Positions 31,550-31,609 of a stretch of DNA of 64,000 nt are shown here, piece after piece (the first letter of the stretch is position 1; each line of letters opens with the position of its first letter). The notes beneath the pieces are model-generated. The model saw nothing but the letters and a program-made list of their open reading frames with translations. It was not told the DNA's origin and searched no databases. The translations under genes and the position numbers were made by a program. The stretch comes from a virus (lineage: Duplodnaviria > Heunggongvirae > Uroviricota > Caudoviricetes), in the IMG/VR virus record IMGVR_UViG_2684623011_000001, positions 53,091-117,090 of that record; one strand, 5' to 3'.

Positions 31550-31609
31550 TGAGGTAGATGGGAATCGAACCCACATCCTAGCATGATCTACCAATTGAAC
31601 TACTACCTC
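31550..31609 (-). tRNA. tRNA-like minihelix lacking the anticodon arm (60 nt)
   Basis: 7-bp acceptor (GAGGTAG/CTACCTC), D-arm (GTTCAATTGGTAGATC) and a good T-arm (GTGGG-TTCGATT-CCCAT), but only 10 nt between the D and T arms. Confidence 0.35.

Follow-up and report, generated by a model that had tools for sequence, protein, structure and literature searches.

Two conserved tRNA-like bodies without a normal anticodon arm in the RNA gene cluster of a Limosilactobacillus reuteri phage-plasmid family, and their possible role as processing modules

What is a tRNA gene kept for if it cannot decode? This question is raised by two loci, here called mini1 and mini2, in a stretch of 64,000 nucleotides (nt) of viral DNA (Caudoviricetes; IMG/VR record IMGVR_UViG_2684623011_000001, positions 53,091 to 117,090), which was analyzed as a whole and is referred to as the window. 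Both loci are encoded on the minus strand within a cluster of RNA genes and resemble tRNAs from which the anticodon arm has been removed or reduced to a stub. Our tentative answer is that they are maintained non-decoding tRNA bodies, kept as processing modules for RNase P and RNase Z. All positions are those of the window unless stated otherwise, and related loci and contigs are designated by L numbers.

The first-pass annotation of this DNA, made by a model from the letters alone, had pointed out two loci with 7-bp acceptor stems, D and T arms and a mid-section of merely 10 and 19 nt. The sequence and searches with the Rfam tRNA model bear out this description:

31609 to 31550, minus strand: mini1, a 60-nt tRNA-like body consisting of acceptor stem, D arm and T arm
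mini1 DNA: GAGGTAG TA GTTC AATTGGTA GATC [ATGCTAGGAT] GTGGG TTCGATT CCCAT CTACCTC A
mini1 RNA: GAGGUAG UA GUUC AAUUGGUA GAUC [AUGCUAGGAU] GUGGG UUCGAUU CCCAU CUACCUC A
35116 to 35048, minus strand: mini2, a 69-nt tRNA-like body with a stub hairpin replacing the 17-nt anticodon arm
mini2 DNA: TTCGGTA TA GCTC AATGGTA GAGC [A ACAT-TGTGCG-GTGT AAAT] ATG(T)GG TTCGATT CCCAT TACCGAA A
mini2 RNA: UUCGGUA UA GCUC AAUGGUA GAGC [A ACAU-UGUGCG-GUGU AAAU] AUG(U)GG UUCGAUU CCCAU UACCGAA A

In mini1, the acceptor stem (7/7) and the T stem (5/5) are fully paired and the D stem pairs at 3/4 positions, with one U.U mismatch. The anticodon arm and the variable loop are replaced by a linker of 10 nt between the D and T stems, which forms no stem and whose final five bases, AGGAU, resemble a variable loop. 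mini2 likewise has a complete acceptor stem (7/7) and possesses a textbook D arm; its T stem reaches 5/5 pairs only with a 1-nt bulge, and its mid-section of 19 nt folds into a stub (ACAU-UGUGCG-GUGU) of 4 bp with a 6-nt loop. The designation "anticodon-arm-less" thus holds for mini1 but not for mini2, which retains a stub that covaries in relatives. Both elements carry the discriminator A73. The Rfam tRNA model RF00005 matches mini1 with 45.7 bits (E 2.8e-7) and mini2 with 50.1 bits (E 1.8e-8), well above the gathering score of 29, in local alignments that skip the anticodon-arm positions, while ARAGORN, which reported five RNA genes in the window, called neither of them. Acceptor stem, D and T arms and the tertiary core of tRNA (U8-A14, G18G19 with a UUCGA loop, R15-Y48, G46) are present in both; the 5-bp stem, 7-nt loop, U33 and anticodon that make up an anticodon arm are present in neither. 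Hence, mini1 and mini2 are tRNAs in all respects but the defining one. This agrees with their earlier portrayal as L-shaped mimics unable to decode, as the tertiary core is retained and no allele has a 7-nt anticodon loop. The T-loop motif GGTTCRANTCC occurs 15 times in the window as compared to 4.8 occurrences expected, with 13 copies falling within 31561-35379 of the minus strand; because of this enrichment, mini1 and mini2 are not chance resemblances.

Homologous loci, suggested earlier as the place to look for a conserved deletion, were fetched from IMG/VR, metagenomes, genomes and Logan/ENA assemblies via the protein or gene of the adjacent dNK. The mini1 slot is occupied in 22/22 loci of related replicons, and it is arm-less in four diverged alleles:

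mini1 allele A / A', 60 / 59 nt: window, L003, L004, L025, L310 and others; linker 10 nt; acceptor stem GAGGUAG/CUACCUC
mini1 allele B, 65 nt: L002, L027 and L028; linker 14 nt; acceptor stem GGGUCGG/CCGUCCC
mini1 allele C, 59 nt: L306; linker 10 nt; acceptor stem AAGGUAG/CUACCUU
mini1 allele D, 61 nt: L308; linker 10 nt; acceptor stem AAGACGG/UCGUCUU

Together these alleles comprise eight distinct sequences in 15 copies, all of them arm-less, with a divergence of up to ~30-40% and with linkers that differ in sequence and measure 10-14 nt. No canonical tRNA was found at the mini1 slot (22 loci) or the mini2 slot of related replicons. The first-pass annotation had considered that relatives might carry full-length tRNAs here, which would mark the loci as recent deletions or pseudogenes. 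The four arm-less alleles largely speak against this idea; the exception is a pair of distant contigs, L311 and L312, in which the mini1 slot holds a 71-nt element with a degenerate arm that ARAGORN calls 'tRNA-???'.

A custom covariance model (R1), which was built from alleles A, C and D, scores mini1 with 90.1 bits and 15 family members with at least 55.6 bits, whereas ordinary tRNAs reach at most 42.3 bits. For pairing statistics, allele B was placed by model-guided alignment. In this alignment 95.3% of the stem cells are paired and 7/16 pairs show a compensatory change; none of 500 shuffles reaches the observed pairing, and slid partners pair at 37-57%. U8, A14, G18G19, the UUCGA T loop and G46 are found in all alleles, and the Levitt pair 15-48 covaries, with A15-U48 shared by A and C, and G15-C48 by B and D. 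A73 and the pair G3-C70 are invariant, while pairs 1, 2, 4, 5 and 6 vary. Each allele has a blemish, e.g. the U.U mismatch in the D stem of allele A or U.U at pair 4-69 of allele B. The compensatory changes and the covariation at 15-48 argue that the truncation of mini1 is old and under selection rather than a recent deletion. Judged from these alignments, the truncated state is ancestral to the diverged replicon set and selected for a tRNA-like fold. In an alternative fold of mini1 favoured by RNAfold, a UUGGUA/UGCUAG hairpin takes the place of the D stem; this fold was rejected, since the hairpin is not conserved in alleles B-D whereas the D stem is.

For mini2, nine variants were recovered from relatives. 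Its stub stem covaries, reading ACAU/GUGU, GCGU/ACGC in L002 and ACU/AGU in L311 (3 bp with a 5-nt loop), and the stub loop varies (UGUGCG, UAUGUA, UGUGCA, CAGAAU or GUUCA). The acceptor pair 6-67 is U-A, C-G or U.G, and the L311 copy has G73. The origin of mini1 was explored in two respects. No parent isoacceptor can be named, as full-length tRNAs with the same D- and T-arm sequences bear many anticodons (Gly, Pro, Ile, His and others). Descent from transfer-messenger RNA (tmRNA), including a two-piece tmRNA, was suggested by 5/7 acceptor pairs that allele A shares with the tmRNA of the cluster, but was rejected: G3:U70 is absent from mini1, its D arm is genuine, and the resemblance is not shared by alleles B and D.

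The sequence abutting mini1 is conserved as well. Four features flank the two elements:

31447 to 31549, minus strand: conserved 3' trailer directly after the mini1 discriminator (9-locus alignment; fold -29.1 kcal/mol, z -2.3)
31610 to 31634, minus strand: hairpin UGUUGGU..GCCGACA ending at mini1 position -1 (from folding)
35125 to 35149, minus strand: hairpin AGAUAAGAU-AUGUGUG-AUCUUGUCU, 8 nt upstream of mini2, conserved in all relatives
35034 to 35045, minus strand: small hairpin CCUA-GCAA-UAGG, 2 nt after the mini2 discriminator (CCUA-GUAAU-UAGG in L311)

The trailer is composed of a small hairpin (31549-31536), a near-invariant single-stranded block of ~38 nt (~31533-31497) and an intrinsic terminator (~31495-31451), of which two variants exist that differ by compensatory changes. 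In 12/12 distinct contexts of its core (22 loci), the trailer joins a tRNA-like body at A|UAGC. The bodies at this junction fall into five cassettes with no relation to each other, of which four lack the arm and one has a degenerate arm. The neighbour upstream of mini1 is not constant; in L002 it is a tRNA-Ile 12 nt away. None of the tRNA genes in the cluster encodes the CCA end, and all of them, including mini1 and mini2, have U74. The small hairpin after mini2 is placed like the one following mini1. The hairpin at 31610-31634 has compensatory variants (GTTGAT..ATCAAC in L003, TTGCT..AGCAA in L027) and is missing in L002, L306 and L308, and is therefore not universal. Structure, conservation, covariation, the fixed junction and the genomic context of mini1 and mini2 are direct observations. 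The trailer had no match in Rfam. Its architecture resembles that of a small RNA (sRNA) or a leader; the ribosome-binding site and start codon of dNK lie ~35 nt beyond the trailer terminator, leaving no room for a separate dNK promoter after it, and the trailer could be an attenuator of dNK.

How might such elements be used? mini1 and mini2 would descend from tRNAs that kept the acceptor/T helix, the D arm and the core, and lost the anticodon arm (mini1) or reduced it to a stub (mini2). In the likeliest reading, they would be transcribed and cleaved, and would serve as punctuation. Transcription would proceed on the minus strand through a ~4.2-kb polycistronic cluster of tRNA, tmRNA and non-coding RNA genes, from about 35680 to the terminator at ~31451, and the folded elements would correspond to the upper half of the L-shaped tRNA together with its elbow. 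Certain host enzymes read no more than this and could then act on them: RNase P would cut at +1 and RNase Z after A73, followed by the CCA-adding enzyme. In lactic acid bacteria, CCA-less tRNA precursors are cut by RNase Z directly past the discriminator (PMC8549757), and bacterial RNase P tolerates extensive truncation of tRNAs and processes tmRNA and phage regulatory RNAs (PMC4919922). The job retained by the bodies would be to set the ends of neighbouring RNAs. In the case of mini1, a highly conserved ~100-nt trailer RNA starting with UAGC... would arise from the cut past A73 and end in the cluster terminator ahead of dNK, while the released tRNA-like RNA of 60-70 nt could be a by-product or have a second use. 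Once decoding became dispensable and the body was still needed for processing of the neighbours, the anticodon arm would be free to shrink, grow or mutate, because RNase P and RNase Z ignore it. Throughout the cluster, bodies are intact while arms are deleted, shortened, enlarged or scrambled (with loops of 27, 18 and 6 nt), a pattern of conserved bodies with altered arms for which a role as processing modules offers an explanation. Among the roles proposed in the first-pass annotation, that of a processing substrate fits the anatomy best, considering the lack of an encoded CCA, U74, the fixed trailer junction and the location in a putatively polycistronic cluster.

Similar elements exist elsewhere. 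A pattern search in IMG/VR for D and T loops that are 6-20 nt apart yielded at least 119 loci. The matches listed include 27 distinct elements, 55-65 nt long and arm-less, that satisfy strict pairing criteria (7/7 in the acceptor stem, 4/4 in the D stem and 5/5 in the T stem); all counts given for these elements refer to this set. Linker length in the set peaks at 8-10 nt, and the acceptor stems show no relation to one another. ARAGORN called 0/27 of them; all 11 strict elements in eight tested contigs match the Rfam tRNA model with 38-55 bits. The 15-48 pair is intact in 23/27 elements (P ~4e-10 versus a chance rate of 0.27), indicating that the anticodon arm has been lost specifically, rather than a random segment. 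An ordinary tRNA is present within 1 kb for only 9/27 elements, and many of the elements reside in short spacers between co-directional open reading frames. A crude scan of the 220 nt downstream detected a terminator for only 8/27. In an unbiased D-arm-anchored sample, the ~85 matches listed had normal spacing throughout and included no arm-less form, so that arm-less forms are rare among phage tRNA-like genes. The alanine identity pair G3:U70, mostly together with A73, is seen in the unrelated arm-less elements L110, L072/L142, L185, L143 and L176. Two arm-less elements (L072, L175) encode an ACCA end. A phage tmRNA precedes the L072 element by ~760 nt, an arrangement echoing that of the window.

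One contig has a particular layout:

L164 (IMG/VR contig), positions 1-4000, 7959-8172 and 10701-10761: location of the features described here

L164 contains four arm-less elements and some hairpins consisting of a T arm only, each directly 5' of a repeated scaffold of ~170 nt. CRISPR-like arrays (36-nt repeats and 30-nt spacers with a 66-nt period; 13 repeats in four arrays) come after the scaffold, which in one case precedes a TnpB/Cas12f-like gene; a HEARO RNA is located nearby. L164 may thus represent a virus-borne RNA-guided system whose guides are matured via tRNA-like handles, and its layout lends independent support to the idea of processing handles.

Several observations weigh against mini1 and mini2 being processing modules. 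Folding of single sequences gives weak z-scores (-1.7 for mini1, -0.95 for mini2); the support for the fold is comparative and not energetic. In close relatives the whole cluster, including the spacers, is 91-96% identical, so that conservation within allele A is uninformative, and the acceptor stem of the L002 mini2 pairs at only 5/7 positions. A third element, 'mini3' (~34150-34190), has decayed in the window, where its 5' acceptor strand is lost; an intact 55-nt form with compensatory changes is found in L003 (6491), L026 (7113), L028 (7746), L306 (1201) and L311 (1240). The hairpin abutting mini1 position -1 might hinder RNase P. Moreover, selection on the D stem, G46 and 15-48 exceeds what cutting minimally needs, namely an acceptor/T minihelix, and selection on the full core could point to another reader, i.e. 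a synthetase, the CCA enzyme, EF-Tu or a defence protein. Finally, if the trailer is a cis-acting leader or attenuator of dNK, as it could be, the purpose of the cut would change.

Reading of the full core by another partner is central to two other explanations. Mature arm-less RNAs might be decoys or sponges that occupy a binder of the tRNA body, at the elbow, acceptor end or CCA tail, either as uncleavable competitors or as product mimics. Candidate targets are a defence tRNase, toxins acting on the acceptor end (nucleotidyltransferases, HEPN enzymes) or a sensor, of the host or of a rival element. Selection spanning the complete tertiary core, beyond a minihelix, would suit such a role. So would the hypervariable anticodon regions on constant bodies in the cluster, a pattern to be expected where well-documented defences that attack tRNAs (PMC10264068, PMC11464382, PMC12445682) drive an arms race. 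In addition, the replicon family carries restriction and toxin-antitoxin genes. However, the tRNases characterised so far recognise their substrates at the anticodon (loop or stem) or at the variable loop, and an arm-less RNA would remain unbound by that route. The specific proposal of a decoy for anticodon nucleases (PrrC, RloC, colicins) is not supported, as those enzymes read precisely what is missing. P2-OLD recognises a motif of the anticodon stem, while mini1 has no arm and the mini2 loop is variable (5-6 nt). Beyond that, no candidate partner is encoded beside mini1 and mini2, stoichiometric sponging against the host tRNA pool would be demanding and the invariant trailer junction is left unexplained, which makes a decoy function unlikely in our judgement. 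For the primer role that had also been brought up, nothing speaks in favour. Another use of the tRNA core would be that CCA-tailed elements are charged by an anticodon-independent synthetase of the LeuRS type, for non-ribosomal aminoacyl transfer or for titration of the synthetase or EF-Tu. E. coli LeuRS reportedly accepts a minimal tRNA-Leu without anticodon and variable arms, given A73 and the D/T-loop core (Larkin et al. 2002). A73, the invariant G3-C70 of the mini1 alleles and the conserved full D/T core fit this idea, as does the alanine set of G3:U70 and A73 in the unrelated arm-less elements L110, L072 and L185, AlaRS being anticodon-independent. Yet G3:U70 is missing in mini1 and mini2, the L311 mini2 has G73, and the frequency of G3:U70 among the strict elements (5/27) does not clearly exceed what the proportion of Ala tRNAs would predict. 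Neither an aminoacyl-transferase nor a synthetase-like gene was present in the replicon parts examined, and L. reuteri is not known for tRNA-dependent cell-wall bridges; aminoacylation as the purpose is therefore rated as quite improbable.

The remaining explanations dispense with a function of the RNA. It is doubtful that mini1 and mini2 are relics, i.e. tRNA pseudogenes whose arm was deleted, for instance by slippage across the hairpin, and which persist in a recombining, homogenised cassette region. The cluster is indeed a mosaic with orphan T arms or broken copies at 31922, 33324, 34169, 35246 and 35379 and the degraded 'mini3'; its spacers are conserved like genes among close relatives, every allele has a blemish, and arm-less forms are rare, with none among the ~85 matches of the unbiased sample. 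Neutral decay is nevertheless at odds with the way in which four alleles keep all three helices through compensation along with a covarying tertiary pair, with a slot that is never empty in 22 loci and nowhere holds a canonical tRNA, and with the intact 15-48 pair in 23/27 unrelated elements. In addition, mini1 of allele A shows 98% identity in comparisons of replicons that are only 75-80% identical in their dNK genes. Very improbable is a role at the level of DNA alone, in which the elements would be sites of cassette exchange or att-like targets of integrases or of IS605/TnpB. Cassettes are swapped exactly at tRNA-like boundaries while the flanks stay constant, TnpB genes (OrfB_IS605/Cas12f1-like) have inserted in the clusters of several relatives, and tyrosine integrases are encoded on the replicon. 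Selection on base pairs and on a tertiary RNA pair would remain unexplained, though. Attachment sites normally contain only the 3' part of a tRNA gene, whereas mini1 and mini2 have a complete acceptor stem and both D and T arms.

If mini1 and mini2 are processing modules, their closest functional parallels are mascRNA and menRNA at the 3' ends of MALAT1 and MEN-beta/NEAT1, which likewise are non-decoding tRNA shapes within a longer non-coding transcript; RNase P and RNase Z excise them, whereby the adjacent RNA acquires its end and a small tRNA-like RNA is freed (PMC4919922). mini1 next to a conserved RNA mirrors this layout, its cleavage being predicted. However, mascRNA is eukaryotic and nuclear, retains a short stem reminiscent of an anticodon stem, and the RNA end that it defines is the 3' end of its upstream neighbour, whereas the partner of mini1 lies downstream and RNase Z would make its 5' end. 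The sequences are unrelated, with no Rfam match except to tRNA. Organellar tRNA punctuation and t-elements as well as engineered arrays of tRNAs and guide RNAs also use tRNA or tRNA-like structures purely as sites for RNase P and RNase Z (PMC4919922), and L164 would be a natural counterpart of the latter. The organellar elements are usually degenerate in the D or T arms and keep the anticodon arm, which is reversed in mini1 and mini2. The tRNA-like domain of tmRNA, of which one is encoded 335 nt upstream of mini1, shares with both elements an acceptor and T arm without anticodon arm and is processed by RNase P. It differs by G3:U70, charging with alanine, the lack of a true D stem and a long helix leading to the mRNA part; mini1 and mini2 have G3-C70 and C3-G70, respectively, a regular D arm and a closure of 10-19 nt, and are not tmRNA domains. 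Phage tRNAs that escape tRNases, such as those of the T5 type or a tRNA-Thr with a shorter anticodon stem that evades P2-OLD, combine an abnormal arm with a preserved body (PMC10264068, PMC12445682). These tRNAs still decode and rescue translation, whereas mini1 is armless and the stub loop of mini2 is inconsistent, so that neither can replace a cleaved host tRNA. Minimalist substrates, i.e. acceptor/T minihelices and arm-less tRNA-Leu, have the same architecture and are cut by bacterial RNase P; they are engineered, whereas mini1 and mini2 are genomic, conserved and covarying. The armless mitochondrial tRNAs of nematodes and arachnids are likewise natural miniaturised tRNA genes (PMC6158502). 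In these the truncation is opposite to that described here, since the D and/or T arms are gone while the anticodon arm persists and decoding continues.

A search of open-access papers and bioRxiv found no account of phage genomes that encode conserved tRNA bodies lacking the anticodon arm. On a more speculative note, phages and phage-plasmids might widely encode an unannotated class of ~55-65-nt tRNAs without anticodon arm but with the tertiary core intact, which would serve as processing handles that release sRNAs, guide or tracr scaffolds or mRNA leaders, and/or as uncleavable tRNA-body competitors against tRNA-targeting immunity, with the loci in the window as founding examples. If made and cut as proposed, they would mean that tRNA genes can outlive decoding as processing modules, with decay of the anticodon arm and not of the body. 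Standard tRNA finders would miss such genes, as illustrated by ARAGORN, which called none of the 27 strict examples among the matches listed nor the two elements of the window. mini1 and mini2 would also provide a natural test bed for tRNA readers that need only the 'top half plus elbow', and they direct attention to the trailer RNA of ~100 nt, which is conserved in L. reuteri megaplasmids and has remained unstudied. L164 suggests that some phage-borne guide RNAs of the CRISPR/TnpB type may mature via the tRNA-processing machinery. Should a decoy role be true, it would be a new RNA-based counter-defence.

The cluster harboring mini1 and mini2 spans ~4.2 kb (about 31450-35680, minus strand), has no credible open reading frames and encodes a tmRNA, ordinary tRNAs and aberrant tRNA-like genes:

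35500 to 35573, minus strand: canonical tRNA-Arg(UCU), the first gene of the cluster (ARAGORN, Rfam)
34810 to 34892, minus strand: tRNA-Trp(CCA), 83 nt, with an unusually long variable arm (ARAGORN, Rfam)
33790 to 33888, minus strand: non-decoding 99-nt tRNA-like gene with a 27-nt 'anticodon loop' formed by a small hairpin followed by GAAAAACA (copies in relatives)
33704 to 33786, minus strand: 83-nt tRNA-like gene with a loop of ~18 nt, doubtfully called 'Tyr-GTA' by ARAGORN (ARAGORN, Rfam; paralogues in L306 at 1965 and 2121)
32914 to 32990, minus strand: tRNA-Ile(UAU) (ARAGORN, Rfam)
32384 to 32457, minus strand: 74-nt tRNA-like gene with the 6-nt anticodon loop UUAGCG (Rfam 33.7 bits)
31944 to 32321, minus strand: tmRNA with the tag ANNHRVTALAA and G3:U70 (ARAGORN; Rfam 74.4 bits)

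At its end the cluster is delimited by the terminator after mini1, followed by dNK; genes for a glutaredoxin and PnuC are located upstream of it. GOLLD, ROOL and mascRNA, considered as large phage RNAs or other Rfam families, gave no match at E <= 10 between 28000 and 40000, and neither CRISPR-like arrays nor long direct repeats were found in this cluster, unlike in L164. The replicon is phage-like, encoding a Pol III alpha subunit, a ligase, helicases of the RecD and DnaB types, a Sak4-like protein, an integrase and HNH endonucleases, and belongs to a family of L. reuteri plasmids (phage-plasmids) of 129-139 kb, e.g. p53608_1 (LN906635.1). Megablast of the cluster against GenBank phages returned only a 56-nt match to tRNA-Arg and no close relative.

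Several genes of the cluster deviate from the tRNA norm in a recurring manner. In the families with an enlarged loop, represented by 33790-33888 and 33704-33786 and by copies in L028 (8219), L026 (7586) and L306 (1965/2121), a palindromic hairpin is followed by the A-rich GAAAAACA or by AAAAC. This enlarged loop of 18-27 nt is conserved although the acceptor stems differ, and covariation is seen in the anticodon stem (CAGGG/CCCUG versus UUGGG/CCCAG); the gene at L026 7586 has a tRNA match of 42 bits in Rfam in L002. The slot at 32384-32457, immediately 5' of the tmRNA, was compared in L003, L004, L027, L306, L308, L311, L315 and L316. Its body is constant (acceptor stem AACAYRU/AYGUGUU) and its anticodon loop hypervariable, being Thr-GGU, 'AAA', CGAAAUG or the 6-nt UUAGCG/UUAACG. 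The tRNA-Trp(CCA) of the window has a 12-nt variable arm, whereas its counterparts in L002 (9698), L028 (8498), L306 (2619) and L311 (1817) are of normal length (72-73 nt); the L311 copy carries AAGAAA in place of the CCA loop. The tRNA-Ile(UAU) of relatives measures 94 nt and has a long variable arm and, like tRNA-Trp, a type-II-like architecture that is unusual for its anticodon.

Orphan T arms with a 3' acceptor strand that lacks its 5' partner occur on the minus strand at 31908-31930, 33310-33335, 34150-34190, 35232-35258 and 35365-35390. The orphan T arm just after the tmRNA is kept in all relatives, even in L315 and L316, which have no tmRNA; this suggests insertion and deletion of cassettes via recombination at tRNA-like ends. 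The tmRNA gene itself is present or absent among otherwise collinear clusters, and its tag varies from ANNHRVTALAA in the window to ANDSYSELRAA in L306 (5184-5561). TnpB genes (OrfB_IS605 with a Cas12f1-like TNB domain) are found repeatedly in or beside the RNA cluster of relatives:

L306, 2755-4197 and 12160-13398: TnpB insertions
L311, 1955-3373: TnpB insertion
L314, 120-1463 and 10890-12047: TnpB insertions
L320, 531-1835: TnpB insertion

Outside the cluster, the replication module of the window contains two paralogous HNH endonuclease genes (PHROG 374/3377; 10619-11437 and 14185-15012, plus strand), which are probably homing endonucleases.

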